Shown piece after piece: positions 4,092-64,000 of a stretch of 64,000 nt of DNA. The position numbers were made by a program, and so were the translations under genes. Where the stretch lies: the IMG/VR virus record IMGVR_UViG_3300045988_126562. The stretch is one strand, 5' to 3'. The notes beneath the pieces are model-generated. The model did no database searches. It was not told the origin of the DNA and worked only from the letters and a program-made list of their open reading frames with translations. Each line of letters opens with the position of its first letter. Position 1 is the first letter of the stretch. The DNA is from a virus.

Positions 4092-7000
4092 ATGAGCAAG
4101 GAGTTAGCTAGGTCAGCTAGGGCACTGGGGAGGGACATGAATTTTTTTGGATCTAAAGAAAAAGATTTCGTGATCCAAACCAAAGGGAGAGTTAAAATTA
4201 ATTTTGGAGACAAGTTTATAGAACTATTCAATGGTAGTAAGTTTACAGTCGGCAATAGTGACGCCATAAAAACTACTAACGGAGAACCTTCTTCAACTGA
4301 TTCTGATGGATTCTATTTTGATGAGAATACTGGAACTTTGTATTTAAAAATAGGAGATAAAGTATACGAAATATTTTCTAATGCTAAATTGAAAGATGGC
4401 TTTATTTCTTACAAAGAAGAACAGTCATTGAACGGCAATGAACAAGTTTTAGCCAAAGAAAATATAGGTTCCATATTTAATACGCCAGAGGAAGCAAAAA
4501 GTAGTGGTGGATCTGGGGTAGTATATATAAAGAATGAAAACAAGGCATATATACTGCAAAATGGAATTTTATATCCTATAACAAATAATACTGAAATAAA
4601 TATAGGAGGGGATTCAGAAGGCGATGATAGTTATTATTTCGATAAAACTGTTACTATAGATATAGACGATGAAGGTATAGCTCTAATAATAGAAGGTCTA
4701 AGAAAATATATTAGAGTAGGCACGGAAGACAACCATACAGATATATATCAAACTGAAGAGGGGGGAATAATAAATTCTGATAAGTCTTTAACCATTCAAA
4801 TAGGTGGAAAAAATATAATAAATATAACTAATGGTAAAGTAGACTTTAATTCCATCATAAAAGCTTTGAAAGGCATTATTACCGACGAAATATATTCTTC
4901 TAATTATCAAAAAGGAGATCCTAGTATAGGAGAAGGTTCAGGATGGGGTATATGGATAGATAAAGAAACAGGAGAATCTTATTTACAAGTAGATAATATA
5001 TTAACTAAATCTAATAACCCTCCTGTATTTTTAAGATATCAACAAGCATTGGATATATTAAAGTCTGGAGATATAGTTCCATCAAAAATATATGTTATAA
5101 TAGATTATCAGAATGAGTGGGAAATAACCCCTGTAGAAGAAATATATGGAGAAAAATATCCAAAGGAGGGATTTGACCCAGAGAATGATTCAGAAAACCC
5201 AGATGCCTATGAAGAAGATGCTGTTAATCCAGATCCCTTATTTGGCATAGATAGGAATGTTAGACCGTTAATTTTAGAAGGAAAATCCTCCAAATCGTTC
5301 CATGATACTGTACAATACTACTATAAAGAAGATTCAGATAGTATATTAGATATGAGATATGATATTAAAGAAGATAATTACTCCATAATAGAGAAAGAAT
5401 TTGATGATGAAAATTTTGATATATCTGATACTTTCCTAGAATTTCCTAATAAGGGAAGAATATATTATGCAAGAGATTCCTGGAATAATGAAGCCCCATG
5501 TGACTTTAAACACTTTACCAACGCAGATGGTAAATATGTTTTTACTTCTCCAGATGGTAAAGATTTATCCTCTATGAATACTGTAGACTCTATAGTTTGC
5601 TCAAATAATAAAATATTAGATGTAACTATTAGAATATCTGACAGTATAAATCCTATGATAATTACAGGTAAAAGGATAAATAGTAATACTGTCGGGGGAT
5701 CGTTTGAAAATGTTTCAATAGGAGACAAAGACTCCATTATAGAATACAATTACTTCAATGGAGAAATAAAAAACTGTAATTTTACTGGAACATTTACTAA
5801 TAACTCTATAGGTTGTTTAATGGATTCCTGTGAATTTAAAAAGGATGTTATCAATAATGAATTTAATAAAGATATAAAAAAATGTACCTTTAATGAAGAA
5901 GTTAAAGATAATGTATTTGATATGTCTATGGAGGAATGTATATTTGGAAAAATCTATAGTAATCAGCTTACAGGCTCAATGAAAAAATGTGAAACTTATA
6001 ATAAAGAAAATCCTGCTGAATTTAGAGAGAATCAAATGATGGGAGATTTTTCCGAATGTAAGTGGTTAGGGAATGTTTACAGTAATGATATGAAAGTAGA
6101 CACAGTAAATAAATGTATTTTTAAGAAAGATATGTTCGGCAATCAAATAGCATCTAGTCTGTGGGAAGAAAATACATTTGAGGATACTCTAAAATTTAAT
6201 GTATTTCAAGCTGATGTAGTTAAATTTCTGGTAGAGGGATTACTCAATAATAACCAATTTATAGGCAGAATCAATGACGTTTCATTCTTTAAAGATTTAT
6301 CAAACAAAGATTATGGTATAAATAATAATATAATAAATGGAACATTTGATACCTGTAAAATTTATGTAGATTTTAGTCACAATACTATAACAGGCCCTAT
6401 ATACCTTCTAACAGCTAATGTAGGAGAAACATATATAGAAAGTACATGTCAATTTAACTATAACGATATAAAAGCTGCTTCTATACACACTATAACTACA
6501 AATGGAGACTTTAGAAGAAATAATATAAAAGCTCAATATTTTGGATTATGCACTTTTAATAATGTATTTGAATGCAATAACTTATCATATTATAATATGA
6601 GAAGTGCAACATATAATAAGATGGTAGGATGTAGTGGCAGCGGAGACACTTTTATAGGAACATTTGCTTCGGAATTTATAAATTGTGAATTCGGAAACAT
6701 ATCAAATTGTACTTTTAGAGAATCTCCAATTAAATTTGCTAAATTTAGAAACAATTTCTCTGGGCAAAATTTTGATTCTAATACTAATATACAGGATCTA
6801 GAAAAACTATATAATGATAAGCATCAGGTTGATGTATTTTTTCATAATAATAAAATAGTAGTTTCTTGTCAGGCTTGTAATGAACCATTGAAAGGAGAAA
6901 TTAAAATGTTTAATGGTTTAGCTTCTGATATACCAGAAGGATGGCATATATGTGATGGTACAGAAGGAACTCCTGATCTAACTGATAAATTTATTAAAGC

Positions 7001-7367
7001 ATCCACTACAGCAGGTCAAACAGGAGGAGCAGAGGGAGGAGAAGTAACTTTGGAAAGTGGTAATATTCCATCGCACGAACATAGTATTACATTTGATCCT
7101 TCTGGATTATCTACTAAGAAATTTATGACTGCTGATAAATATATGGAATTTGTGGTAGATGAAGGAGGAGATCATCACTACTGTATGTGGACTGGAGAAA
7201 GAGAAGGAGACAATGAACCAGGATATGAATATATAGGTATTAGAGATACCTTCACTACAGCATTTAATAGCGCCAAAGTAGGAGCTAGTTCTTCTGGTGG
7301 AGGTAGTACTACTCCTATTAATATAGAACCTCCTTATTATACTCTAATATTTATTATGAAATTGTAA
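4092..7367 (+). CDS. Tail fibre protein with beta-helix-like repeat region and C-terminal phage tail-collar domain
   Basis: 1091 aa. The C-terminal GEIKMFNGLASDIPEGWHICDGTEGTPDLTDKFIKA plus ending EPPYYTLIFIMKL is the classic tail-collar fibre signature. The central part carries about 13 degenerate C-x-F repeats. Confidence 0.75.
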   Translation: MSKELARSARALGRDMNFFGSKEKDFVIQTKGRVKINFGDKFIELFNGSKFTVGNSDAIKTTNGEPSSTDSDGFYFDENTGTLYLKIGDKVYEIFSNAKLKDGFISYKEEQSLNGNEQVLAKENIGSIFNTPEEAKSSGGSGVVYIKNENKAYILQNGILYPITNNTEINIGGDSEGDDSYYFDKTVTIDIDDEGIALIIEGLRKYIRVGTEDNHTDIYQTEEGGIINSDKSLTIQIGGKNIINITNGKVDFNSIIKALKGIITDEIYSSNYQKGDPSIGEGSGWGIWIDKETGESYLQVDNILTKSNNPPVFLRYQQALDILKSGDIVPSKIYVIIDYQNEWEITPVEEIYGEKYPKEGFDPENDSENPDAYEEDAVNPDPLFGIDRNVRPLILEGKSSKSFHDTVQYYYKEDSDSILDMRYDIKEDNYSIIEKEFDDENFDISDTFLEFPNKGRIYYARDSWNNEAPCDFKHFTNADGKYVFTSPDGKDLSSMNTVDSIVCSNNKILDVTIRISDSINPMIITGKRINSNTVGGSFENVSIGDKDSIIEYNYFNGEIKNCNFTGTFTNNSIGCLMDSCEFKKDVINNEFNKDIKKCTFNEEVKDNVFDMSMEECIFGKIYSNQLTGSMKKCETYNKENPAEFRENQMMGDFSECKWLGNVYSNDMKVDTVNKCIFKKDMFGNQIASSLWEENTFEDTLKFNVFQADVVKFLVEGLLNNNQFIGRINDVSFFKDLSNKDYGINNNIINGTFDTCKIYVDFSHNTITGPIYLLTANVGETYIESTCQFNYNDIKAASIHTITTNGDFRRNNIKAQYFGLCTFNNVFECNNLSYYNMRSATYNKMVGCSGSGDTFIGTFASEFINCEFGNISNCTFRESPIKFAKFRNNFSGQNFDSNTNIQDLEKLYNDKHQVDVFFHNNKIVVSCQACNEPLKGEIKMFNGLASDIPEGWHICDGTEGTPDLTDKFIKASTTAGQTGGAEGGEVTLESGNIPSHEHSITFDPSGLSTKKFMTADKYMEFVVDEGGDHHYCMWTGEREGDNEPGYEYIGIRDTFTTAFNSAKVGASSSGGGSTTPINIEPPYYTLIFIMKL

Positions 7368-7440
7368 AAACGTATTCAAGGTAAAATTATTTAATTAAAT
7401 GCCTTATATGCTATCATTTACAAAAATATATAATAAGGAT

Positions 7441-7471
7441 TTTGATAAGCTATTAAATATGATTAACTTTG
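7441..7471 (+). promoter_or_regulatory. Bacteroides-type sigma-A promoter (-33 TTTG / -7 TAnnTTTG)
   Basis: TTTG at 7441-7444, a 19-nt spacer, then TAACTTTG at 7464-7471. The scaffold ATG lies at 7496. Confidence 0.7.
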
Positions 7472-7495
7472 CAAATAACTTTAAAAGGGAATAAT

Positions 7496-8626
7496 ATGAC
7501 TGATGATTTAAACAATTTAGACTTTGACGACGAATTAGAAGGTGGAGAAAGTGGAGGAGGTAACGTTAGTAACCAAGAACCAGATTTCGACCCAGATAAT
7601 TACGTTAAACCATATATTGGTGTCAATGGAGAACCTGAGCCTGATATTAAGCAACGAAATGATGAGCCAGGAGATGAAGACAAAGATGATGACCTTGTAA
7701 CTGCTTTATTAAAATCTAAAGGCATTAAGGATATTACTGCAATTAAAATGGAAGCAGAAGATGGTTCAATAGAAGAAAAAGATTTTAACTCTTTATCTAG
7801 AGAAGAGCAATTATCTATTTTAATGTCTTCTGAAAGTCCAGCTGACGCCTCACCTCAGCTATATGATGATGAAATTGATTTTTTAAATGAGGTTAGAGAT
7901 AACAATATATCAGTAAATGACTACATAAACTGGATTAGGCAACAAGCTGTAGAAGATTATATTAATTCTATTAGTTCTGAAAATAGTGACATTGACTCTT
8001 TATCTGATGAGGATCTATTCCTTCTAGACTTAAAAGATACATCTCCTGACCTAACTGACGAAGAATGCATAGCTGCTTTAGAGCATGAGAAAGAAAATCA
8101 AGTATTGTGGGAGAAGAGAATGCAAGGATTAAGAAACTCCTACAAAGCTAAAGAAACAGCTCGAAGAGAAGAAGAGGAATTTCTTAGACAAGAGGAAGAA
8201 CAAAGGCAAGCAGTTGAGTTCCAAAATGCTATTCAAGAAGCAGTAGGTAGGGTAGATTCCATTGGAGAATTTGATTTAGACGATGAGGATAAAGAAGAAA
8301 TCGCTGAATTTATTCTTGGAGTAGATAAGACTGGAACACGTTATTTTGCACGTGCTTTAAATGATCCAGAAACACTAACTAGAATGGCGTGGTTCGCACT
8401 TAATGGAGAAGATGCTTTAGAAACTTTGTCTAAGTACTATAAAGAGCAGATAGATGCATACTCCAGAGCTAATTACAAAAAAGGCTTTGAGGATGGGCAA
8501 AAAGGTAAACAGCCTGATAAACCAGCTGTTACTACAAAAACTACAGTACGTAAACCAGAATCTAAAACAACACCTCAGGGAGACTACAAACCTATATCAA
8601 CTCCCTATTACATTGATTTAGATTAA
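7496..8626 (+). CDS. Putative capsid scaffolding protein
   Basis: The ORF track starts at a TTG (7469); the first ATG is 7496 (MTDDLNNLDF). The protein is highly acidic with a charged coiled-coil segment (RREEEEFLRQEEEQRQAVEF) and lies immediately upstream of the capsid gene. Confidence 0.6.
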   Translation: MTDDLNNLDFDDELEGGESGGGNVSNQEPDFDPDNYVKPYIGVNGEPEPDIKQRNDEPGDEDKDDDLVTALLKSKGIKDITAIKMEAEDGSIEEKDFNSLSREEQLSILMSSESPADASPQLYDDEIDFLNEVRDNNISVNDYINWIRQQAVEDYINSISSENSDIDSLSDEDLFLLDLKDTSPDLTDEECIAALEHEKENQVLWEKRMQGLRNSYKAKETARREEEEFLRQEEEQRQAVEFQNAIQEAVGRVDSIGEFDLDDEDKEEIAEFILGVDKTGTRYFARALNDPETLTRMAWFALNGEDALETLSKYYKEQIDAYSRANYKKGFEDGQKGKQPDKPAVTTKTTVRKPESKTTPQGDYKPISTPYYIDLD

Positions 8627-8644
8627 ATTTAAACTATAATAAAT

Positions 8645-10063
8645 ATGATAGTAGCAAATTTCGTTACAAAAAGACCGACAATGTCGGAAACTCACACCTA
8701 TGAAGATTTTTATAAATTCTTAGGTACACGCCCAACAAGATTGGGAGTTATGTCTCGTATGTACCCAGAACTTACAGCAACATTCCTTACTGAATCTCTT
8801 AGAAATATCTTTTACATGGATAATAAGAGACAGCAATATAGGAGTATTGACTCCTTATATTTCGATTGGGATGTTGAAACTAACTACATTAAGAGAGTAG
8901 AGTTCGCAGCAGTTCCTACTGAAACTGGAGAAAATGGATCTGAAATCATTATGTATTTCAAAGAGAGGTACTACGAAAAATATGATATTTTCAAGATTGA
9001 TAAAACTAGGCAGCAATGTTTTGTTGTTGAACGCCCAGTAAGAAAGGCAGATGATATGTGGGAATATGTTGTTAGATTAATTGACAATGATTATTCTTCT
9101 TTACTTGATGTATCTGGATGTCAAATTGGAGACACTACTAGATTCCAATCTAATGCTATGCCAGAAATGCACGAAGAAGGTTATATCAAGTATCAATCTA
9201 ATATTGAAAAACACAGAGGTTATATTACTACTCACCGTGTTGATGTATCATATTCTGCATTATTCGCAGCTATGGAAGATCAATTCATCAGTATTGCAGA
9301 AGGAAAAGACAATGGTTCTTTAAAGGAAACTCTGTACAAGATGAATAAGAAGGAAAAAGACTTATTAAATAGCTTCTTAGAAGTTAGAAATAACGGTCTT
9401 TTATTTAATAAAACAAATGTAGACAAAAATGGTAAGTCTACTATCGTCGATCCTGATACAGGACGTCCAATTTATATTGGAGATGGAGTTATTCCTCAGG
9501 TAGAAAGGTTCGCATCTAAGTACGCGTTCAATAAATTAACTATTCAGGTATTTATGGATGCTATGTCTGCAATGGCAGAAAAGGCTGAACAACCTACAGG
9601 AAATCATTTTGTATTTATTTGCAATGAAAGAATGTGGACTCTTGTTCAACATATCTTAGGTGAATATTTATCTAGGTTTAAGCCAGCTACAGCTTATATG
9701 TATAGTAAGGCAAAGAACGGATACTTAGACGTAGGAGCTACATTCCAAGCATATGAATTTGGAGGAAATACTATCTCATTTAAAGTAGATAGGACGTTCT
9801 CTAGAGAATATGGGATGGAAAAGGCTTATGCTCTGTTACTTGATTTAACAGCTGATAAGTCTACAGGTGAACCTGCAATGCAAATGTTCACTTTAAAGGG
9901 AGGTGACTTCGTTACTAATAAATTCCCAGGAGTTGGTGGTCTTGATGGTCTAAGCTCTGGTATTGTTTCTTCTGCTGTAGCAGCTAGTAAACTTATCAAC
10001 TGGGGATACTCAGGTATCGCTGTATTCTCTCCATACAGGGCATATATTATGGAAGAAATTTAA
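8645..10063 (+). CDS. Major capsid protein (HK97-fold, crAss-like type)
   Basis: 472 aa, directly after the scaffold-like gene, followed by a hairpin, behind a strong host-type promoter. Size and sequence character are consistent with crAss-like MCPs as I recall them. Confidence 0.7.
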   Translation: MIVANFVTKRPTMSETHTYEDFYKFLGTRPTRLGVMSRMYPELTATFLTESLRNIFYMDNKRQQYRSIDSLYFDWDVETNYIKRVEFAAVPTETGENGSEIIMYFKERYYEKYDIFKIDKTRQQCFVVERPVRKADDMWEYVVRLIDNDYSSLLDVSGCQIGDTTRFQSNAMPEMHEEGYIKYQSNIEKHRGYITTHRVDVSYSALFAAMEDQFISIAEGKDNGSLKETLYKMNKKEKDLLNSFLEVRNNGLLFNKTNVDKNGKSTIVDPDTGRPIYIGDGVIPQVERFASKYAFNKLTIQVFMDAMSAMAEKAEQPTGNHFVFICNERMWTLVQHILGEYLSRFKPATAYMYSKAKNGYLDVGATFQAYEFGGNTISFKVDRTFSREYGMEKAYALLLDLTADKSTGEPAMQMFTLKGGDFVTNKFPGVGGLDGLSSGIVSSAVAASKLINWGYSGIAVFSPYRAYIMEEI

Positions 10064-25388: not shown

Positions 25389-25947
25389 AATAAATGATAA
25401 AGAGTATAGAGTTAAAATAGCTTATACTGATGAGGAAAAATCCAGAGGCTTGCAGGGAATAAATTCTTTACCAGAGGATGAAGGTATGTTATTTGTATAT
25501 GATGAACCTCAAACGGTTGGGTTTTGGATGGATGATACTAATATTCCATTAGATATAGTCTTTATAGACGATGATGAAGAAGTATTATCTGTATATTCTG
25601 GAGAGCCTAATGATAGAACTATAGCAGAGGAAGATAATGTAAAATATGTACTAGAAGTCAATCAAGGCTCTGGAATTAAAGAAGGAGACGAGATTGACAT
25701 AGAAGAAGAGGAGGATGATTCCGAAACCTCTAAAATGTTAGTGATTGGGCCAGATGGAGGAGTACAAATGGAATTAGAAGGAGGAGAAAGAATTGTTTCT
25801 AGAAGAGAGACTAAAATATTAGTAAAAAAGGCTAAAAAAGCATATAATTCTGAATTAGATTCTGATTACAAATCTTTAGGAAAATATATGTTTAAAGTGC
25901 TAAACAAACAGGATAAGCGTGAGCCTGAATATGTGGAACAAGAATGA
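25378..25947 (+). CDS. DUF192 (COG1430) domain protein with acidic C-terminal extension
   Basis: From ATG 25378: MIVKINDKEYRVKIAYTDEEKSRGLQG...EGMLFVYDEPQTVGFWMDDTNIPLDIVFID...VKYVLEVNQG. This matches the DUF192 signature (GLM..GMLF..FWM.nT..PLD..F). The start overlaps the previous stop. Confidence 0.75.
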   Translation: MIVKINDKEYRVKIAYTDEEKSRGLQGINSLPEDEGMLFVYDEPQTVGFWMDDTNIPLDIVFIDDDEEVLSVYSGEPNDRTIAEEDNVKYVLEVNQGSGIKEGDEIDIEEEEDDSETSKMLVIGPDGGVQMELEGGERIVSRRETKILVKKAKKAYNSELDSDYKSLGKYMFKVLNKQDKREPEYVEQE

Positions 25948-25955
25948 AAAAAAAT

Positions 25956-25990
25956 AAGGGAGAAGCCGCAATAATTGCAACTTCTCCCTT
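25956..25990. terminator. Bidirectional intrinsic terminator at the convergence of the two late gene blocks
   Basis: Perfect 10-bp stem AAGGGAGAAG (25956-25965) / CTTCTCCCTT (25981-25990). An A-run lies upstream and a T-run downstream, so it works on both strands. It sits between stop codons at 25947 (+) and 25997 (-). Confidence 0.85.
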
Positions 25991-25996
25991 TTATTT

Positions 25997-28900
25997 TTAT
26001 TCCTGTTCATCTAACGGAAACATATCATATATCATTGGTTTAAATGGTTTAAATGCTCCTACATTTGAAACAAAAGCTCTTGGCAAATTACTATCACCAG
26101 ATATAGCATCTTTAAGTGATGTAACAAATCTTGTGATAACTCCCCAAGCTACGAAATTTAACTCTAATTGGCCAGTAAATGTTTTCCAAATATTAAATTC
26201 AGAACTAGCATTTCTTAATACTAATTCTATATTCTTATCAATGGCTGTTTTATCACTTTCTTTTACATTACCAAATAACAGATACATAAGTATCGAGAAG
26301 AAAGCTAATCCTCCTACATCTCCCAAAAATAGATTAAGATTTCTTAATTTAGTGGGATCATTCCATGCTTTTAAGAAGTCTTCTCTGCTAGTTCCTCCTT
26401 TTATATAATTAACCACATTAATTAAACTTGCCAAACTCCAGAATATACCTTCCATCATGCCTCCCTGCCAGTCTTTAACAGGAAATCCTGTGTTTTCTGT
26501 AGTTTCTACTCTTTTCCCAGAATCATCATATTTCCAATATAACTTTTTTCCTGTTACAGAGTCCACTTTGTCAACCCATTTACCTGTTTTATATGTTCCA
26601 GGAGTTAAAAAGTATTGAGCACCTCTAGCGGTAATATATGATTGGAATTGCCCTAAAATAACTCCGATGCCTTTCCTAAACCACATGGATTTGTTTGTAC
26701 TGTCCATATATCCGAACATCATATTAGCTTCCTGAATCATTTTATTTGATTCTAGAACTGTATATGCTTTAGGAATATCCTTATCATCGTCCGTCATAGA
26801 CCTAGTTTCTCCAGTTTCCCAGTTAGTTACAACAGCTCCCTCATCTATCATTTGCCTCCATATTGTCAAATAAAGAGATCTCTGCTCTTGAAATGTTTCT
26901 AATTCAGATTTAGGAATTTCAGATTCTGGAGTATTTTGATACTTAGCATAAATACTAAATCTTTTATCTTCACGCCAATTATATTCTATATGATCCCCCA
27001 CTAGTTTATGTGCATCATAATTACCATCCTTTAGCATATAAGCAGTAAATACTGTCATTCTGTGTAAAAAGTCCGGAGACCTAGCGGTAAAGAATAGTAT
27101 ATTATTAACTCTTCCTACTTCTCCCTGATAGTAATTTAATCTTTCTACCATTTCCTGTTCGGATACGTTAGCTATACCATATTGAGCGTTTAAATGCTCT
27201 CCCATAGTAATTGTTTTTATCTGCCTAAATCCATCCTGCCATACCATTGAATATGCTTTACTAGCTTCTTTTATTCCAAATCTGGAGTCATCAAATCTAT
27301 TGGCGTTAGCATTATTAAATAAAGTCCACCATCCGACTAATCCTTCCTTAGCCATAGATAGAACATTTAATCCTAATACCATCTTACTAGCCACAGACTT
27401 TATGGAAGAAACTGTTCTCCATAAACCTTTTTCATCTTTATCAAATAAAGACATATCCAATACTGAAGATTTAATGAAGTTGACAATGAAGTCCAAAGTA
27501 GGTTTATTAAGTTCCAGCTGCCCATTACTTAATTGGGCATTCCAAGCATACGAACACAATGAAGAACTTACGTTAGCAATTACAGGGTCTAATATTTCCT
27601 TTCTGGTAACTACATAATTATATAAATCCTTAATTCTTTCTAGATTTATGTCAAATGACTCTAATCCCTCTTTTTCTATCATTCCTAATCTTTTGTCAGG
27701 ATCAGATGATAAAGAAAAGGAATTAAATATACCATCAAAAATTAACCCATTTTTTCCAAAGTCTGTTTCAGAAGAATCCAATCCTAAACTCATTCTAGGA
27801 TCTATAGTAGCATCTTCTAAACCTAATGTATCTTTGAGAGCCTCCTTAATGTTTTGTTTATTGTTTACTATTCTTGATAAAGCTCCAGCTCTTACTAATG
27901 GTAATTGAAAAATATCGTACCCTTGATCTTCTGCCTCTTCTAAAGTTAAATCATATTTAATTCTAGTTAAATCCCTAACATACCATTCTAGATATTCTTT
28001 TTCGTCTTTACTAAGAGTATCATCATATCTAAAATCTTTTAGCCTTAGATCTCTTGTATTAGATCTATCTATTAAATTTTTAAATATTATTTCTGAGTTA
28101 TTAACAAATCTGTTATTCCTAAATCCTGGGTTGCTATTTTTAAATTTATCGGTATGTCTTCTATCAACTACTTTATAAGCCATATACTTATTTCTAATTA
28201 TAGAGTTAGCTTCCATAACTCTATCGTATATAGCTTGAATTATAGGAATAGTATCCTGAGGTCTTAAATTAATAGAATTAAATAAAGTCTTGTTTTCTAT
28301 ACTCTCTCTTAATCCTTGACCTCCCAATATATTGCCAGATAATTTAGTTTCATTCCTAAAGTCTATAGAATATCCAGATAGTTTAGAAATAGCTAGATCT
28401 ACCTGTGATTTTAAGTAGCCTAATATAGAATTATCTTCTGTAGCATTAAACCTATATTTATAATAATGCTCATTTAAAGCATCCCTTAGCTTCTCTAGTC
28501 TTTTTAATTGCTCTGCCTTGTCATTTACCAATTCCGATAGTTTATCGTTTTTGAAATTATTTGGATTAATCGAATTGGCTCTGAAATAATTAGCAACAGA
28601 AGTTGAATTGACTATAGCCTCATATAAGGAAGCAACCCTAGCGTATAGTTCTCCAGCCCTAACTTTATTTGTTTCTATTCCAACTGAGTTAGCTAAAATA
28701 TTATAATTGTTTTCTAATTTTTCACGAATTACAGTATCATCAATTACGGACTTATTGCTTAACCCTAGGACTTTAAGTTCGCCTGTTTCATAATTGTCGG
28801 CTAGTTGATTAGCTAAATACAATAATTTAACTAGCTCAATATTACCCATATTTGCTACAAGTTTGTTAGATGAGGACATGTTGTCACTATATAAATGACC

Positions 28901-57809: not shown

Positions 57810-58136
57810 TTAAACTCTCCTGACTATCAATCCACCATTTTTGAATACTGGTTCCCCTTGAGGAGCTTCTTGAGGACCTCCTGCACCACCTGCCATTTGT
57901 TGGATTAATTGTAAAAATCCTTCACACACAGCTAATGCTAATTGACCATCTCCTGCTTGTAATGCTTGCTGTGCCATTTGAGCTAGCTGCATAATTGGAT
58001 CTCCTCCTGCATCTGGACCAGCTGCTGGAGCTGGAGCACCTGTAGGTTGTCCTGCTGGAGCAGCCATTCCTTGTTCTTGTGGAGTGGGAGCTGCCCCTCC
58101 TTCTTGAAATTTTGCTACTTTTGAATTAATTTTCAT
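57810..58136 (-). CDS. Small Ala/Gly/Pro/Gln-rich low-complexity protein, first gene of the giant operon
   Basis: The start is moved from 58202 to ATG 58136 (MKINSKVAKFQEGGAAP). The -7 promoter box abuts 58202, and the new N-terminus aligns with that of the 624-aa protein. The gene is locally GC-rich. Confidence 0.5.
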   Translation of the reverse strand: MKINSKVAKFQEGGAAPTPQEQGMAAPAGQPTGAPAPAAGPDAGGDPIMQLAQMAQQALQAGDGQLALAVCEGFLQLIQQMAGGAGGPQEAPQGEPVFKNGGLIVRRV

Positions 58137-58203
58137 TTTTACATGATTTAATATGTTAGTACTAACTATCGAATTATTCAATAGCTCGATCATTGTAATC
58201 ATG

Positions 58204-58336: not shown

Positions 58337-58945
58337 CTAAAACAATTTATCATATATTTCAATTACCTTTTTTATAAGTTCTTCCACAGAACCATTATTA
58401 TCAATTATAAAATCAAATTTATTATAGTCATCCAAATCTATCTCAGATTTGTGATTATCATTATTATGAGTATTTCTGTTTACTCTGATAAGGATACCTC
58501 CCTTATTTTTTATATGGTCAGCTTCATTCTGATACCTAACATCAGTAACGATCCAATTATCTTTTTTTGCCTGATAGTCAGTCATTAAGGCCTTAATCCA
58601 AATATCCTCTCCTAGAGAACTACGAAAAGACTCTCCTATTTTTTGTAGTACTTCTCTATTTGTGATGCCAGTAATAGGATCAATACTTTTTTTGAAACTT
58701 TCCCTTTCATAATCTTCTACGTAATGGGAGCACAAAATTGAAGTTATTTCTTTTAGCTTGCCAGCAAAAGACTTTAGTTCAAATCTGGCTGTTGTTGGAA
58801 TGAGTTCACTATCACGATACTGCTTTACATAATCTTCTAAAGAAATAAAATGTCTATTAGAGTTTCTATATATATCTATTAATATTAAAATATTTCCTAT
58901 AGTGTTCTTTCCACATTGCTTTTTGCCAGATATACCTACTATCAT
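58337..58945 (-). CDS. Deoxynucleoside monophosphate kinase-like P-loop protein
   Basis: 202 aa with an N-terminal GISGKKQCGKNT P-loop, REVLQKIGE..R and VTDVRYQNEADHIKNKGGILIRVNR, as in phage dNMP kinases. Confidence 0.65.
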   Translation of the reverse strand: MIVGISGKKQCGKNTIGNILILIDIYRNSNRHFISLEDYVKQYRDSELIPTTARFELKSFAGKLKEITSILCSHYVEDYERESFKKSIDPITGITNREVLQKIGESFRSSLGEDIWIKALMTDYQAKKDNWIVTDVRYQNEADHIKNKGGILIRVNRNTHNNDNHKSEIDLDDYNKFDFIIDNNGSVEELIKKVIEIYDKLF

Positions 58946-59370
58946 ACAATCAGAGTCTTAACAATTTCAGAAACCATCTTTCCATCTGCTGCTGGAAAAT
59001 TGGATTTTATATCTTTAATAACAGAACCCATTTCCTTTTTCTCTATGTGATGATAATTGTTATCCTCTAGCCAGTCTAAAATATCTTCTTTAGTTGGCTC
59101 TTCTGGAATTAATTCCTTTAGGTATATAAGTTCTATATTTTCTAAATCAGCTAAGTCCTTTCTTCCAGCGTCAGTGTATTGTTGAATAGAATCCTCTCTT
59201 TGCTTAATCATTCTCTTTAGCAAAGATATTTCTGCAATTTCATCATACGGTTTGGCATTTTTAGCAGTTTTAAATGCTTGAATTTCAGACTTTATAGCTC
59301 TATAAGTTTTAACTTTCCCCTGCTGTTTATCCTTCATTGCTTGAAGGATCATTAAATCAATGTTCATCAT
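58942..59370 (-). CDS. GatB/YqeY-domain protein
   Basis: 142 aa. AMKDKQQGKVKTYRAIKSEI..LLKRMIKQREDSIQQYTDAGRKDLADLENIELIYLKELIPE...MGSVIKDIK matches the YqeY domain pattern. Confidence 0.7.
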   Translation of the reverse strand: MMNIDLMILQAMKDKQQGKVKTYRAIKSEIQAFKTAKNAKPYDEIAEISLLKRMIKQREDSIQQYTDAGRKDLADLENIELIYLKELIPEEPTKEDILDWLEDNNYHHIEKKEMGSVIKDIKSNFPAADGKMVSEIVKTLIV

Positions 59371-59857
59371 ACCTGTTTAATATTTTAATTGCTTTATTAA
59401 CATTATCTTCAGTTAATCCCACTCTAAAATCAGTTTGGATAAAATTGTCTAATTGTGTAGGTAGCATATCACAGTCGTCATCCAATATACAATAAGATAA
59501 TACGTTTTTCTGGGCGTCTAAATAATTTTGTATTTCAAATCCCCTATATCTGGTTTGACTTATTCCTGTTATTCCAAAGATCTCATTGCTAATGCCCACC
59601 ATTTTAAATAATTCCTTTAAATCAGAATCAAATCTCCAACTAGAGGATACTATTAATTTACATCCCGTTTCTTTAAATATCTTATTAAGCCTTTTTATAG
59701 CTTCTGGATCAAAATTAGACAGTTTATATACCATCTGCCCTGATATACTTGGATTTTCCTCATGTATTTTGAGCATTCTATCATTTTGAGATATTTCTGT
59801 GTAGAATGCTTCACTATTCAGAACTCCATCCACATCTAAAAATAGATACTTATTCAC
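59357..59857 (-). CDS. HAD-superfamily phosphatase (HAD_SAK-like)
   Basis: 166 aa with motif I FLDVDGVLN, motif II VSSSWR and a late acidic motif CILDDD. Confidence 0.65.
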   Translation of the reverse strand: MNKYLFLDVDGVLNSEAFYTEISQNDRMLKIHEENPSISGQMVYKLSNFDPEAIKRLNKIFKETGCKLIVSSSWRFDSDLKELFKMVGISNEIFGITGISQTRYRGFEIQNYLDAQKNVLSYCILDDDCDMLPTQLDNFIQTDFRVGLTEDNVNKAIKILNRYDEH

Positions 59858-59863
59858 GTGATA

Positions 59864-60640
59864 TTAGTTGTTTTTTATTTCGTTGTAAGCTTGGTCTTCC
59901 AATTCTGGTGTGACGTCTTCAAGACGAATGCCTTTCATACAAGGACAGTTTTTCCATTGAATATCATAATCACAAGAAAGTAAAAGTAAATCAGTATTAT
60001 CAGCATTAACGGCCATAATCCAATTATCGGAAGCTGTCTCTACTTCAACACAGTCAATTGCCCTTGTGGGTTTAGGTATCCATCCATTATTAATCTCGTA
60101 GTACCATAAAAGACAAGTACTAAAATATCTTCCAGTAAGAACATTATCTTTATGCTCAAATAGTCCTCCACTCCAACAAACAGGGCTTTTATTTTCAGTC
60201 CATTCTTTAGTGGCAAAACTATACTTACCAGTAGCTCGCTTAGTGAAAGCTCCATTATAATGAATACTACCATCTGGCTCCTTGAAAACATCACTTTTAC
60301 GCTTGTTTTGACAAGTACCATCTGCACTTATTTGTTCCCATTCATCATCGGTAAATCTAAGGGGACTAATAATATCCCAATTGCAAAGCCTTTTAACAAG
60401 ATTAATCTCCCAGGGAGCTGACATTCCAGAGTTACCATGAGAACTAAATACAGCTATAGCTTCGAGAACTTGTTGGTACATCCAATCATTTGGACCACCT
60501 TCTCCTCCATATCCAGCTAGTTTAAGCTCTTTTATTGCGTGTTGACAAAGATTACTTTCTCTAATAATACGTTGAAGAACTTTTTTATTAATAAGTTCTT
60601 TCTTTTGCTGCTTCTTAATATATCGTTTACTATGTTTCAT
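59864..60640 (-). CDS. Hypothetical protein
   Basis: 258-aa ORF with a basic N-terminus and many Trp/Cys residues. No motif recognised. Confidence 0.4.
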   Translation of the reverse strand: MKHSKRYIKKQQKKELINKKVLQRIIRESNLCQHAIKELKLAGYGGEGGPNDWMYQQVLEAIAVFSSHGNSGMSAPWEINLVKRLCNWDIISPLRFTDDEWEQISADGTCQNKRKSDVFKEPDGSIHYNGAFTKRATGKYSFATKEWTENKSPVCWSGGLFEHKDNVLTGRYFSTCLLWYYEINNGWIPKPTRAIDCVEVETASDNWIMAVNADNTDLLLLSCDYDIQWKNCPCMKGIRLEDVTPELEDQAYNEIKNN

Positions 60641-60642
60641 AA

Positions 60643-61035
60643 TTAGATGTTATATCGTCTTTTTATATTCTGAGCTGTTCCACTGTTCCATCTGCAATCC
60701 TTTACGAATGCAATGTCGAAATCAGAATCTCTAGTCATGGCTGAGTCTCTTTCTTCGTCAGACTTAAATCCTCCACGGAAATCCACTAAATCTAATATAA
60801 CCCTTGTATTCGCCTCTGGAATATTTCTTGGCTTATTAAACATGTGGTAAATTGTTATATGGCATATATCCTTGTTGAATATATAGTCCATTGCAAACTT
60901 ATCTACCCCACAGCAGTCACCTATTACAAACTTAGCCTCATCATCCTCTCTTATAGCCTTGTCTATAATTGGAGTATAATATTTCTCAAAGTCCTCATAA
61001 GAAAGGTTTCTGTGCCCACTTATAAAATATATCAT
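60643..61035 (-). CDS. SLOG-superfamily (DUF2493/YpsA-like) protein
   Basis: 130 aa. YFISGHRN...AKFVIGDCCGVDKFAMDY...ERDSAMTRDSDFDIAFV...SGTAQNIKR follows the DUF2493 layout (G.R...hG...GaD..A...Rn..m...d..iaF...s.GT). Confidence 0.5.
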   Translation of the reverse strand: MIYFISGHRNLSYEDFEKYYTPIIDKAIREDDEAKFVIGDCCGVDKFAMDYIFNKDICHITIYHMFNKPRNIPEANTRVILDLVDFRGGFKSDEERDSAMTRDSDFDIAFVKDCRWNSGTAQNIKRRYNI

Positions 61036-61051
61036 TTTATTTTATGTTTAA

Positions 61052-61435
61052 TTATAATTGAAAATTTGAATTAAAAATAGATAAGGCTTCTGATAGACAG
61101 GCTATAAAAGTAGTCTTTTCCCTAAAATTCCAGGAATCTCTAGGAAACCAACTACCATCATCCTCTCCCAATATTATAGTATAATATGTTTTATAAAATT
61201 TATCATATATTATAACAATTCCTCCTTCATAAGCTACAAGACTATAAGCTCTTACAAACCTATCATCCTCATAATATCTAATGATAGAATTGCAACGCTC
61301 TGAAGCTCTTTTATAAGATTTACATTTCTTAGTTTCAAAAGCACTATAAATGATTATGTCTTCACCATTACGTTCTGGATTTAAAGCACTGGTATCTTTT
61401 ATTATTACATTTTCTACCTCTTCATTTAATTCCAT
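61052..61435 (-). CDS. Hypothetical protein
   Basis: 127-aa ORF whose start overlaps the end of the upstream gene by 10 nt. Confidence 0.4.
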   Translation of the reverse strand: MELNEEVENVIIKDTSALNPERNGEDIIIYSAFETKKCKSYKRASERCNSIIRYYEDDRFVRAYSLVAYEGGIVIIYDKFYKTYYTIILGEDDGSWFPRDSWNFREKTTFIACLSEALSIFNSNFQL

Positions 61436-61842
61436 TCTACTTTATACTTAGTATTATTTTCGTCATAGTAATAAATTTCAATTCCTTGAAATACTAAAAA
61501 TGAATATTCATTTCTGCTTGCTAGACAACTTTGTATTTCACTTCTTTCTTTAGAAATATAAAATTCACAATCTAACAAATCCATAAATACATTATATTCT
61601 ACTTCAGATAGTCCAATATATTCTCCTGGATATTCTTTTTCATAGTTATCAAAGCATATACCCCAATGGTCTTTAAGAGGTTTTAATTTATTTAATATAC
61701 TTACATACTTAACAACCTTTTCTATCTCGGATTCGTTACAGATGAAATCATATGTAGTATTTCCGTTAGCATCTCCTATCATATAATTAAATATTACATG
61801 ATAATAAGGAGTTTGATTCTTTATAGGGATTAATTTTATCAT
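61426..61842 (-). CDS. Hypothetical protein
   Basis: 138-aa ORF with ATGA coupling to the Sir2 gene. Confidence 0.4.
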   Translation of the reverse strand: MIKLIPIKNQTPYYHVIFNYMIGDANGNTTYDFICNESEIEKVVKYVSILNKLKPLKDHWGICFDNYEKEYPGEYIGLSEVEYNVFMDLLDCEFYISKERSEIQSCLASRNEYSFLVFQGIEIYYYDENNTKYKVEWN

Positions 61843-62513
61843 AATTTTTGGATTAATTGTTTCATTCCTTCTGTAGCAGTAGCTTTGATAACTTCAATAT
61901 CAAGATATTCAGGAGTGGGAGCAGGATTAGGGTCAATATAATAAATGGGAACTCCGTACTCTACATATTGTACTAGGCCAGCAGCCGGATATACGTTAAA
62001 ACTAGTTCCAATAACTACGCAAATGTCAGCATCTAATAATTCTTTAGAAGCAAGCTCAATATTGGGAACATCCTCTCCAAATAATACAATGTGAGGTCTT
62101 ACTTTATGTCCTCTAATTTCAGTTTCCGGTGTAATATCATCTAAGTACTCAAAATATAAATTATCATCGTCTATTGCCCTTACTTGGTTTAGATTACCAT
62201 GTAAGTGAATTATGTTAGTAGAGCCAGCTTGCTCATGCAAAGTATCTACATTCTGAGTTATAACTACCACATTATAATCCTTCTCTAACTCAGCTATGAT
62301 TTTATGGGCATCATTTGGCTTACATCCTGCATATTTCTTCCTAAGCTCGTTCATAAAGTTATATACTACATCAGGATGTTCCACTATAGCTCTATGAGTA
62401 GCTATATCTTCTACTTTATGATTTTCCCAAAGACCTGTTACTGCATCCCTAAATGTTGGGATTCCAGATTCTGCTGAAATACCCGCTCCTGTTAAAAATA
62501 CTATTTTCTTCAT
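61839..62513 (-). CDS. Sir2-family NAD-dependent deacylase/ADP-ribosyltransferase-like protein lacking zinc-ribbon cysteines
   Basis: 224 aa with GAGISAESGIPTFR, TQNVDTLH, the catalytic His in IHLHGN, RPHIVLFGE and VIGTSFNVYPAA. No CxxC pairs occur between the His and RPHIV. Confidence 0.8.
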   Translation of the reverse strand: MKKIVFLTGAGISAESGIPTFRDAVTGLWENHKVEDIATHRAIVEHPDVVYNFMNELRKKYAGCKPNDAHKIIAELEKDYNVVVITQNVDTLHEQAGSTNIIHLHGNLNQVRAIDDDNLYFEYLDDITPETEIRGHKVRPHIVLFGEDVPNIELASKELLDADICVVIGTSFNVYPAAGLVQYVEYGVPIYYIDPNPAPTPEYLDIEVIKATATEGMKQLIQKL

Positions 62514-62803
62514 ATTTTAATTGTTTTGACAAAGTCAGCACTGTTAGCTAATTCATATACTACTTGTTTAGATTCTGGCACATAAACAATATAATAATAA
62601 TCACAAAAGGAATTACAATCTTCTATTCCTATTATAATTCCTTGTAGTCCTTTATCTGTAGTACATTCCTTCCCTAAATAGTCAATACTCTTATCCCACT
62701 TTATAGATTTAAGAAATTCTTCTGCATCCTTACTAAAGTATTGACAATCCTCTACAGGACCTCTTCCATAAATATCCTTTTCTACAGTTCTCTTAATTAT
62801 CAT
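62510..62803 (-). CDS. Hypothetical protein
   Basis: 97-aa ORF with ATGA coupling on both sides. Confidence 0.4.
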   Translation of the reverse strand: MIIKRTVEKDIYGRGPVEDCQYFSKDAEEFLKSIKWDKSIDYLGKECTTDKGLQGIIIGIEDCNSFCDYYYIVYVPESKQVVYELANSADFVKTIKI

Positions 62804-62979
62804 TTTATTTTCAATTTTACCATTATTTCATCCCATAATAGCAAATAACTTTCCCAATAGTCGTTAAAGTCAAAGTAGTACCAACTCATTTGAATATACC
62901 ATATGAACAAATATATAAAAAATATTATTATCCATACAGGAATTAATAAGACTCTAATAAAAAGTTTTAAAGTTTTCAT
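62800..62979 (-). CDS. Small single-pass membrane protein (59 aa), absent from the ORF track
   Basis: Hand translation of the minus strand gives MKTLKLFIRVLLIPVWIIIFFIYLFIWYIQMSWYYFDFNDYWESYLLLWDEIMVKLKIK. Its ATG (62979-62977) overlaps the upstream TGA, and its TGA (62802-62800) overlaps the downstream ATG. It exactly fills an otherwise empty 172-nt gap. Confidence 0.6.
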   Translation of the reverse strand: MKTLKLFIRVLLIPVWIIIFFIYLFIWYIQMSWYYFDFNDYWESYLLLWDEIMVKLKIK

Positions 62980-63278
62980 TTCTCCAATTTGTGAACTAAT
63001 CCATATACATTTTTAGTCCATCCATTCATATGGCCTTTATTATTTCCTATGAGACAACCTTTTTTAGGGTTAATGGCATACACTTTATGAGTAAAGCAAC
63101 TTCCTTTTACTTTGCAAAATACTACGTCACCTACTTTGCACTGTTCCCATGTAATAGGAGTAAGCAAATGCTCCTCATTACTTTTGTATAATGGAAGCAT
63201 AGAATTTCCTGGCTCCTTAGTTATAAATGATTCACCGTTCAGAAGCCTAGTTATTTTGTTAAACGTATTGGGATTCAT
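62976..63278 (-). CDS. S24 (LexA/UmuD/signal-peptidase-like) serine peptidase domain protein without an HTH domain
   Basis: GNSMLP (the G-[DN]-S-M-x-P Ser motif), GDVVFCKV and THKV. Start chosen at ATG 63278, 1 nt after the Nudix stop. The ORF-track start at 63302 overlaps the Nudix gene by 23 nt. Confidence 0.5.
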   Translation of the reverse strand: MNPNTFNKITRLLNGESFITKEPGNSMLPLYKSNEEHLLTPITWEQCKVGDVVFCKVKGSCFTHKVYAINPKKGCLIGNNKGHMNGWTKNVYGLVHKLEK

Positions 63279-63279
63279 C

Positions 63280-63804
63280 TTATAACTTTCTAAACATTTC
63301 AAATATTAGCTTGTCATGCCCAAACGCCCAATCATATTTGTTAACATCAGCTAGGGGAATCCAAGCTAAGTCATCACATTCGTCCTTCTCAGAAAATACT
63401 TTAGATAGTTGAGGTTTAAAATGAAATCTAATTAGTCCAGCATAATAAAAAGTAATATTCTGAAGTACATCATCCTCAGGATTGCTATTAAATCCCTTGA
63501 AATCCAGATGTAAATCATAGTAAGAATCTCCTACTTGTAAACTAGTTTCCTCCAATAATTCTCTCGCTGCTGCTTCTTGTACGGTTTCGTTATAATCTAC
63601 ATATCCGCAAGGGCAACACCATTTTCCTATGTTATTAGGGCATCCTGGACCTCTTTTTACCGCCGCTACACACCACTCATCATTCATGTTAGAGAATACA
63701 AATATAGCTGTAGCACAGGAACGGCTATGCCAAACTGTCTTCCCTTTCATGTTTTCTCCATCTACTATAATATCCTCTGTTATTTTAATTGGAAAATTTT
63801 TCAT
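63280..63804 (-). CDS. Nudix hydrolase
   Basis: The Nudix box GYVDYNETVQEAAARELLEETSL fits G-x5-E-x7-R-E-U-x-E-E-x-(G/S)-U. 174 aa. Confidence 0.8.
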   Translation of the reverse strand: MKNFPIKITEDIIVDGENMKGKTVWHSRSCATAIFVFSNMNDEWCVAAVKRGPGCPNNIGKWCCPCGYVDYNETVQEAAARELLEETSLQVGDSYYDLHLDFKGFNSNPEDDVLQNITFYYAGLIRFHFKPQLSKVFSEKDECDDLAWIPLADVNKYDWAFGHDKLIFEMFRKL

Positions 63805-64000
63805 TTATATAGATTATTTTTTCTGATTATTAACTGTGCCTCTTCTGGAACATATGGAGAAATGATTTTATTCTCTTTTATCATATTTCTAATTTTAGTA
63901 GAACTTATATCTATAAATTTTAAATGGGTATCGCAAATACATTTATTGCCCAAGCTTCTAATGCTAGATAATTAGCGTTATCATATCCATATTGTGCTCC
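63801..64000 (-). pseudogene. NadD-like NMN/NaMN adenylyltransferase, C-terminal part, frame-interrupted and cut by the window edge
   Basis: One frame (63971-63801) ends ...FIDISSTKIRNMIKENKIISPYVPEEAQLIIRKNNLYK*. This aligns residue-for-residue in spacing with the NadD C-terminus (ISATxIR ... P-E ... I ... LY[RK]-end). The upstream part (64000-63920) is open in a different frame (GAQYGYDNANYLALEAWAINVFAIPI*). The stop overlaps the Nudix ATG (ATGA). Confidence 0.45.

Follow-up and report, generated by a model that had tools for sequence, protein, structure and literature searches.

The stretch of viral DNA analyzed here (64,000 nt from the IMG/VR record IMGVR_UViG_3300045988_126562; hereafter, the window) ends in a block of minus-strand open reading frames (ORFs) that includes genes of NAD+ and ADP-ribose (ADPR) metabolism. 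We found that a 2,932-bp microhomology deletion in this block joined codon ~235 of pncB, the gene for nicotinate phosphoribosyltransferase, out of frame to codon ~156 of nadD, and took nadE, a P-loop kinase gene, the 3' end of pncB and most of nadD. Because the NAD-making genes were lost to this deletion, the genome encodes no NAD synthesis of its own. The block is best read as the surviving part of a dispensable, decaying NAD+/ADPR counter-defense island in a crAss-like gut phage, and we assign this reading a probability of approximately 0.55. A preliminary description, made from the letters of the window alone, had proposed four NAD- or ADPR-related genes on the minus strand, mostly joined by ATGA overlaps. 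The positions, the strand and five ATGA junctions were borne out; however, the block contains three intact NAD/ADPR-family genes and one deletion scar, not four genes.

Deletion in the NAD Synthesis Genes

The deletion junction, GGGCAA|TAAATG, is located at 63940-63951 on the minus strand, with the breakpoint between 63946 and 63945. In DNA alignments, the window tracks pncB as far as GGGCAA, and nadD from TAAATG on. Compared to the related contig L010, 2,932 bp are missing (L010 positions 6928-9859); the microhomology at the breakpoint is 2-3 nt exact, within an imperfect similarity of ~24 nt. On the upstream side, an internal piece of pncB (63920-64000, minus strand; residues ~218-235) was identified by translation, tblastn and DNA alignment to pncB of the related contig L002. 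This piece reads over the junction into eight foreign codons and ends at a TAA stop (63922-63920), while the 5' part of the gene lies past the window end. At the window edge, the open frame encodes GAQYGYDNANYLALEAWA; in L002, this peptide belongs to the middle part of a 393-aa nicotinate phosphoribosyltransferase, and nadD follows 2.9 kb downstream of pncB as a gene of its own (203 aa). On the downstream side, a 3' remnant of nadD (63801-63945, minus strand; about residues 156-203 and the stop) was recognized by translation, NCBIfam and tblastn.

A tblastn search of the entire window returned PncB residues 218-235 (64000-63947, at 100%) and NadD residues 151-203 (63962-63804) only; no PncA, NadE, kinase or second copy of an NAD gene was found. 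A blastn comparison to a 99.8%-identical contig gave a split match, with 64000-63937 aligned to pncB and 63960-55001 aligned to nadD onward. The nadD remnant carries the C-terminal ISSTKIR motif, with a C-terminal match to the NCBIfam NadD model (NF000840, E 1.4e-7). Neither the Rossmann core nor the HxGH motif remains in it; the relatives have a full 203-aa NadD with GSFDPIHIGH. The remnant is therefore predicted to be non-functional. The preliminary description had counted this piece as an NAD-synthesis gene, which was refuted: the NadD frame is closed by stops near 63960, and the fragment is not cut by the window end. This is a caution for annotation, in that a motif-bearing piece at the edge of a window can be a deletion scar and not a clipped view of a gene. 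The complete set of enzymes leading from NADase products to NAD+ was not found in the window, which contains no PncA, no NadE and no functional PncB or NadD.

L024, a 4.4-kb human gut metagenome contig that comes from a different assembly and is recorded in two samples, contains the same 38 nt of junction without a change. Over 301 nt, this contig matches the window at 100% identity, and it runs 72 nt further into pncB. The deletion is thus a real allele, because the same junction is present in an independently assembled contig. Exact-junction scans of IMG/VR and of the JGI metagenomes gave no match. An assembly artifact was considered and ruled out by the junction in L024 and by the shortness of the exact microhomology. 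Recoding occurs in some crAss-like phages; however, a programmed frameshift or stop-codon recoding that would join the frames at 63920-64000 was rejected, since the upstream frame is pncB and not nadD, the stops include TAA, and the relatives have two full genes 2.9 kb apart.

Intact and Deleted Alleles in Related Phages

The exact Nudix protein of the window was found in 85 blocks of the public collection. In eight of the eight listed places, the genes upstream are Metallophos, isochorismatase-family PncA, a 70-aa ORF, NAPRTase, DUF4177, NAD synthase, a 135-aa ORF, an AAA_28-like kinase and NadD, and these are followed by the same block from Nudix to Tad3. The order of the intact island, which is present in at least nine related contigs, near-identical phages (99.8% DNA identity) among them, is Metallophos-PncA (nicotinamidase)-70 aa-PncB-DUF4177-NadE-135 aa-P-loop kinase-NadD-Nudix-S24-like-TM59-orf97-Sir2-orf138-orf127-SLOG-Tad3-like, where TM59, orf97, orf127 and orf138 denote small proteins by their lengths in amino acids. 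The PncB and NadE proteins of the relatives pass the NCBIfam cutoffs (459.6 bits versus 379, and 135.9 versus 63.65, respectively). On paper, therefore, the relatives would be able to convert nicotinamide to NAD+ through a complete deamidated pathway. The earlier proposal of a phage with both NAD-making and NAD-using enzymes does not hold for this genome, where synthesis is deleted, and holds, in a stronger form than was suggested, for the near-identical relatives with PncA-PncB-NadE-NadD. In these relatives, the deamidated set, and not Nampt, is found upstream of the Nudix gene; the preliminary description had suggested looking for Nampt beyond the window end. None of the enzymes of the published NAD+ reconstitution pathways, that is, Adps and Namat (NARP1), Nampt (NARP2), or PnuC and NadR (NARP3), was among the Pfam or NCBIfam matches of the window or the relatives; the relatives show a weak AAA_28 kinase only. 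This AAA_28-like P-loop kinase is split into 63 + 113 aa in L002 and L003 (L002 8883-9396) and is an intact 170-aa protein in L004 (8885-9397) and in L010-L016; the split is a further sign of decay in the island.

The deletion in the window is one member of an allele series. We detected at least six further deletion alleles that create chimeric ORFs, and at least seven distinct deletion or replacement alleles; most of the allele junctions are at short shared peptides, and the chimeric ORFs are in-frame. One allele joins NadD(1-84) to SLOG(45-130) (P0018), and other chimeras are Nudix::orf138, orf138::HAD and PncA::orf138 (P0435, P0460 and P0461, respectively). The contigs L018 and L019 combine PncB(1-~141)::Nudix with Sir2(1-79)::SLOG(114-130) (L018 7769-8620 and 9387-9677). 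Smaller changes include the absence of orf138 and orf127 from L015 and a truncated orf138 in L023. In L012 (10527-11273), a different Sir2 of 248 aa directly follows Nudix and replaces the S24-like protein, TM59, orf97 and the 224-aa Sir2, in a phage that is otherwise near-identical. The Tad3-like gene is kept in nearly all alleles. Because so many other deletion alleles with chimeric ORFs exist, the island is dispensable, and these alleles suggest that it is kept only where the hosts carry matching defenses.

It should be noted that the block is also mosaic at the level of identity. The Nudix gene (63280-63804) and orf138 (61426-61842) are ~75-80% identical to their counterparts in L002 (10001-10528 and 11966-12379, respectively), and S24-like, TM59, orf97, Sir2, orf127 and SLOG, between and around them, are 97-100% identical to L002. 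This pattern suggests allele swapping or diversifying selection on both genes.

Proteins Retained in the Window

Among the family assignments made in the preliminary description, the Nudix and Sir2 calls are confirmed by Pfam matches well above the cutoffs; the DUF2493/SLOG call stands at the level of the fold, without a direct Pfam match; and the S24 peptidase call is weak only. The most informative neighbor, encoded at 59864-60640 (minus strand; 258 aa), had escaped that description. It is located 2 nt downstream of the SLOG gene, outside the coordinates of the preliminary description and in the same block, and it belongs to the Tad3 family (type I Thoeris/TIR inhibitor family) according to PF25185 (122.8 bits versus a cutoff of 27, residues 29-134) and to a match with the solved Tad3 chain 9b7d_B (E 5.9e-6). 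Tad3 is reported to bind the TIR protein ThsB (PMC13402655, PMC13243611, citing Yirmiya et al. Cell 2025). The counter-defense idea of the preliminary description gains support from this adjacent gene. In p-crAssphage (Carjivirus) genomes, a counterpart with ~80% DNA identity bears only the annotation 'coil containing protein'; p-crAssphage itself thereby encodes a Tad3-family protein. No other DNA-level similarity to p-crAssphage was found in the tested stretches (59800-64000 and 1-25000), the structural region included. The difference between ~80% DNA identity here and ~23% identity of the capsid proteins suggests exchange of an anti-defense gene between distant gut phages, or else strong conservation.

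The Nudix hydrolase (63280-63804, minus strand; 174 aa) matches PF00293 with 58.9 bits versus a gathering threshold of 21.1. Its Nudix box is GYVDYNETVQEAAARELLEETSL; compared to the consensus GX5EX7REUXEEXGU, only the last G is changed, to S (pattern G-x5-E-x7-REllEEtS). The best NCBIfam matches are the Nudix halves of bifunctional NMNAT/Nudix models (E 2e-7, 30.6 bits versus cutoffs of 350-450), and the Francisella NadM-Nudix enzyme (PDB 2qjt) is among the top solved matches (E 4e-5). Its nearest counterparts thus appear to be the Nudix domains of NadM-Nudix enzymes, and ADPR pyrophosphatase is a candidate activity. In other viral contigs (L005), Nudix homologs are found in unrelated contexts. 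The adjacent adenylyltransferase (NMNAT) and Nudix genes had been likened to NadM-Nudix/NatV enzymes in the preliminary description; the likeness applies to the Nudix half, whereas the adenylyltransferase is of the NadD type and is a remnant here.

The 130-aa product of 60643-61035 (minus strand) is a SLOG-fold protein, a LOG/YspA-like Rossmannoid, according to an AlphaFold2 model and Foldseek. It has no Pfam match at E<=1, YAcAr/DUF2493 (PF10686) included, and no useful match in NCBIfam, PADLOC or a phmmer search of PDB; the only sequence-library match is PHROG 289 'GTP-binding domain' (E 8e-5). The AlphaFold2 model, built from 35 homologs, has a pLDDT of 89.6. The top Foldseek matches in PDB are LOG proteins (1ydh, 2a33, 5wq3), TM1055 (1rcu), a Moco carrier (2iz7) and the N-terminal (MHR) domains of TRPM2 and TRPM8, with probabilities of 0.9-0.99, TMq of 0.54-0.65 and E-values of only 0.06-0.1. 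We take all of these proteins to be members of the SLOG superfamily in the Burroughs/Aravind classification. On the strength of this model, the assignment to SLOG is accepted at the fold level. The family comprises 939 clusters in a profile search and has no Pfam model of its own. Its invariant polar residues (H8, D40, D45, D93, R96, D97, S118-G-T120, N123 and R126-R127) suggest a defined pocket or active site. Tad2-like, KTSC, DUF7352 and dCMP/MafB19 deaminase domains occur as fusion partners in the family; the fusion to a Tad2-like domain (53 bits) is found in P0193. By analogy with this fusion, and with the NAD/ADPR neighborhoods, the SLOG protein may bind or cleave a ligand that is a nucleotide or derives from ADPR. 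One such neighborhood is found in a diverged phage (L029 3043-7438), with the order NAD synthase-NadD-Nudix (244 aa)-NADAR-SLOG homolog, followed by HAD-YqeY. In L029, NADAR occupies the place of Sir2 and its neighbors, and neither a Tad3-family gene nor a sirtuin is present. The NAD/ADPR linkage outlives gene turnover, because L029 keeps NadE-NadD-Nudix-NADAR-SLOG-HAD-YqeY.

The sirtuin (61839-62513, minus strand; 224 aa) is a CobB-type Sir2 protein (PF02146, 142.5 bits versus a cutoff of 24). It aligns with E. coli CobB (1s5p, E 1e-39), and the NAD-binding and catalytic motifs (GAGxS, TQNxD and HG) are intact; the scores are under the NCBIfam CobB/deacylase cutoffs (198 bits versus 243 for NF001753, and 180 versus 320 for NF040867). 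There is no Cys in residues 106-146, so that the four-cysteine zinc ribbon is lacking. The nearest cellular relatives are chromosomal sirtuins of Bacteroidota, with 50-55% identity (Capnocytophaga, Bacteroidaceae and metagenome-assembled genomes of Bacteroidales), which are also devoid of the ribbon cysteines; sirtuins of enterobacterial phages are only ~30% identical. Defense-type SIR2 proteins (ThsA, DSR, SIR2-HerA) were considered and rejected, since the PADLOC and NCBIfam Dsr1 matches are negligible and the protein is of the CobB-like type.

The remaining ORFs are small. The S24/S26-like protein (62976-63278, minus strand) has 100 aa from the ATG that gene callers choose, or 108 aa from a TTG at 63302. 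Its family matches are under the cutoffs (Pfam S24, 13.6 bits versus 23.3, E 0.054; TIGR02228, 23.8 versus 51.85, E 3.4e-5), and a GNSM serine motif and a candidate Lys (THKV) are visible by eye. TM59 (62800-62979, minus strand) is a 59-aa hydrophobic protein that, by inspection of the sequence, probably has a single transmembrane segment. It has no family match in Pfam, PHROGs, NCBIfam or PADLOC; the same searches gave none for orf97 (62510-62803, minus strand) and none for orf127 (61052-61435, minus strand), which is missing in the relatives L015, L023 and L004. For orf138 (61426-61842, minus strand), with 83 homologs, the AlphaFold2 model is confident (pLDDT 90.8), and Foldseek found no solved match in PDB (every probability <0.15). 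Its matches in BFVD (E 1e-4) are confined to uncharacterised proteins from T5-like, SPO1-like and giant phages.

Organization of the Block and Genomic Context

The run of minus-strand ORFs at 59864-64000 has almost no intergenic space, with nine ORFs tightly packed in 60643-64000. ATGA overlaps are found at five junctions (nadD remnant/Nudix, S24-like/TM59, TM59/orf97, orf97/Sir2 and Sir2/orf138), orf138 and orf127 overlap by 10 nt, and the remaining junctions are gaps of 1-16 nt. A terminator scan found no strong terminator-like hairpin inside 59864-64000. Plus-strand ORFs within the block are short, overlap the minus-strand genes and show no sign of being genes. The clustering of NAD/ADPR-family genes is clearly non-random, because intact relatives add PncA, PncB, NadE and NadD upstream, a Tad3-family gene adjoins downstream, and the diverged lineage retains NadE-NadD-Nudix-NADAR-SLOG.

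Further downstream on the minus strand, Pfam labels on identical proteins of the relatives point to a HAD_SAK_2 phosphatase (59357-59857), YqeY (58942-59370) and a dNMP kinase (58337-58945). The first good terminator-like hairpins of this strand are at 58326-58289, after the dNMP kinase at the end of the 58337-59857 context, and at 57804-57774. Between these two best hairpins of the region, a 130-aa ORF (57810-58202) has a long low-complexity middle rich in Ala, Pro, Gly and Gln, and is identical in eight of the eight relatives L010-L017. Scans for tRNAs and Rfam families gave no match in the entire window.

A capsid-like protein (8645-10063) shares 22-24% identity with the major head proteins of crAss-like phages, and its identity to a protein in an unannotated 117-kb gut phage record is 75%; the related contigs cluster at 170-185 kb. 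On this evidence, the label 'crAss-like' seems reasonable but distant. Together with the relatives of the sirtuin, the crAss-like affinity suggests that the host belongs to Bacteroidota. Plus-strand genes, the capsid-like ORF included, stop near 25.4 kb, and minus-strand genes, with ORFs of 3181 and 2793 aa among them, extend from 26 kb to the window end; this strand switch, at ~25400-26000, coincides with a change in the sign of the GC skew.

Functional Interpretation and Alternative Explanations

In the counter-defense model, host NADases of the TIR or SIR2 type would split NAD+ into nicotinamide and ADPR. The intact island could then rebuild NAD+: PncA would convert nicotinamide to nicotinate, from which PncB would produce NaMN, NadD would produce NaAD and NadE would produce NAD+, while Nudix would cleave ADPR to AMP and ribose-5-phosphate, feeding PRPP synthesis of the host. 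In parallel, the Tad3-family protein would block the TIR signal synthase, and the SLOG-fold protein would bind or cleave the ADPR-derived signal. The sirtuin would act as an NAD-consuming deacylase that may retune the acylation of host or phage proteins. In the deleted allele, only the arm that handles the signal and ADPR would still act; of the functions of the island, those of Nudix, SLOG, Tad3 and Sir2 can remain. The model agrees with the principle established for NARP1-3 and with what has been predicted for viral SLOG and Nudix domains (PMC9503650).

Several observations weigh against this model. Every enzymatic step is deduced from family membership, and the host assignment is indirect. 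The relatives' NadD (95 bits versus 112) and PncA (75 versus 174) are under the NCBIfam equivalog cutoffs, with Pfam support for both, and the NadM-Nudix matches of the Nudix protein are far under cutoff. For the SLOG protein, the structural E-values are weak, a match to PF10686 (YAcAr, formerly DUF2493) was obtained for one of the 56 scanned family members only and is marginal (E 0.0048), the Tad2-like fusion is seen in a single 1.9-kb contig, and another lineage has a SLOG homolog beside ThyX, without NAD genes. The CobB-like sirtuin has no obvious counter-defense role and resembles a host housekeeping gene; among the members of the island, it suits the counter-defense model least. Finally, the frequent loss of parts of the island could just mean that these genes matter little.

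A more specific version of the counter-defense model is put forward only tentatively. The intact island might be a fourth, deamidated route of NAD+ reconstitution (PncA-PncB-NadD-NadE, with ribose-5-phosphate from Nudix), physically coupled to two anti-Thoeris functions, namely, the Tad3-family TIR blocker and the SLOG-fold family of ~940 clusters, without a Pfam model, that would bind or cleave ADPR-derived immune signals. The deletion alleles would then represent loss where hosts have no NADase immunity.

The sirtuin is better accounted for by another explanation, which we consider unlikely on the whole. The island could be a module of auxiliary metabolism, for host takeover or NAD homeostasis, centered on the sirtuin, and not on counter-defense. 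The sirtuin would deacylate host or phage proteins at high flux, PncA would clear nicotinamide, the product that inhibits it, Nudix would clear O-acyl-ADP-ribose, and PncB-NadD-NadE would regenerate NAD+, as in the yeast Sir2-Pnc1-Npt1 system, where the link between sirtuin and salvage is established biochemistry. In the window, such a sirtuin would rely on salvage by the host. The sirtuin is indeed of the housekeeping, CobB-like type with intact motifs and 50-55% identity to chromosomal sirtuins of Bacteroidota, it shares one translationally coupled block with Nudix, the relatives carry exactly the deamidated salvage set, and a study of Bacteroidota gut jumbo phages (PMC11662467) put forward their 'independent synthesis and utilisation of NAD+'. 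However, this explanation leaves the adjacent Tad3-family TIR inhibitor and the SLOG-fold protein unexplained, the diverged lineage has NadE-NadD-Nudix-SLOG and NADAR without a sirtuin, and some alleles lose most of Sir2 yet keep Tad3.

It is doubtful, to a somewhat greater degree, that the genes have no joint function and that small accessory genes, each acquired independently, have piled up in a hypervariable region, with an NAD theme that arose by piecemeal capture from Bacteroidota hosts. The turnover described above fits such a region: the deletion or replacement alleles, genes that come and go (orf127 and orf138 absent in L015; another Sir2 in L012), the mosaic identity of Nudix and orf138 amid ~99-100% identical neighbors, and SLOG homologs beside unrelated genes. 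On the other hand, ~10 NAD/ADPR-related genes are contiguous, in one orientation and with coupled starts, a full four-step pathway is present and not scattered steps, and a diverged lineage shows the linkage again, among a different set of genes. Very improbable, and like the accessory-gene explanation weaker than the sirtuin-centered one, is an NAD-dependent RNA-repair module with a KptA-like sirtuin removing 2'-phosphates from cleaved RNA, aided by Nudix, HAD, calcineurin-like phosphoesterases and kinases: such a role was predicted for a clade of phage sirtuins, and the relatives have Sir2, Nudix, HAD_SAK_2, two Metallophos genes and P-loop kinases in one stretch that resembles the neighborhoods of that study (PMC9503650), but neither an RNA ligase nor a 2H or cREC gene appeared among the Pfam annotations of the window and the relatives, the sirtuin is nearer to the cellular CobB type (45-55%) than to the enterobacterial-phage sirtuins (~30%) behind that prediction, and PncA, PncB, NadE and NadD are left unexplained.

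If the counter-defense model is correct, the abundant crAss-like phages of gut Bacteroidota would possess a modular set of tools against both NAD-depleting and TIR-signaling immunity, and NAD reconstitution, shown experimentally for NARP1-3 in Bacillus and enterobacterial phage systems, would extend to a deamidated route and to the dominant group of human gut phages. The natural deletion series (intact; synthesis arm deleted; Sir2/SLOG deleted; others) could then show which genes matter. The large SLOG-fold family is flagged as a candidate signal-binding or signal-degrading anti-defense protein.

Comparison with Known Systems

The preliminary description had regarded the arrangement as not previously described for crAss-like phages. 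Its novelty was overstated, since such clusters and networks have been published. Gut jumbo phages of Bacteroidota have complete salvage or Preiss-Handler pathways, with clustered pncB-nadD-nadE and many NAD-consuming enzymes, and counter-defense was suggested as their role (PMC11662467). Viral NAD+-ADPr networks of SLOG, Nudix and sirtuin proteins have been described, in which SLOG and Nudix are predicted to act on ADPR-derived signals (Iyer, Burroughs, Anantharaman, Aravind 2022; PMC9503650). For NARP1-3, it is established that phages reconstitute NAD as a counter-defense (10.1101/2024.02.11.579819, PMC13464706). What stands of the novelty claim is that our literature search found no paper placing such clusters in crAss-like phages or naming a deamidated 'NARP'. 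The island is a further case of a published type of cluster, and the copy in the window is degraded.

Similarly to the jumbo-phage clusters, intact relatives of the window have pncB, nadD, nadE and pncA beside NAD-consuming enzymes, in gut phages with probable Bacteroidota hosts, and counter-defense is proposed in both cases. The differences are that the contigs are <200 kb and crAss-like by the capsid, that the island adds Nudix, SLOG and Tad3-family genes, and that the synthesis genes are deleted in the window; both systems are known from genes alone. The viral NAD+-ADPr network likewise includes stand-alone SLOG and NadM-clade Nudix proteins in phages, whereas the SLOG family of the island has no direct Pfam YAcAr/DUF2493 match, and its sirtuin is of the Bacteroidota CobB-like type and not of the phage 'RNA-repair' clade. 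As regards Tad3 (PDB 9b7d), the product of 59864-60640 scores above the threshold of the Pfam Tad3 model and is similar to the solved sequence; however, it has 258 aa compared to 194 aa, only residues ~29-134 match, and TIR binding is putative here. With NARP2 and the KVP40 pair of NadV and NatV, the island shares the pairing of an adenylyltransferase with a Nudix protein, here one that appears closest to the NadM type and whose gene, in the relatives, is translationally coupled to that of the adenylyltransferase, and salvage from nicotinamide to NAD+; it differs in the absence of Nampt, in the deamidated route and in an adenylyltransferase of the NadD type and not the NadM type, of which the window retains just 50 codons. 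The enzymes of NARP1 (Adps and Namat) and NARP3 (PnuC and NadR) are different from those of the island, and the proposed purpose is the same, that is, restoration of NAD+ against NADase immunity.

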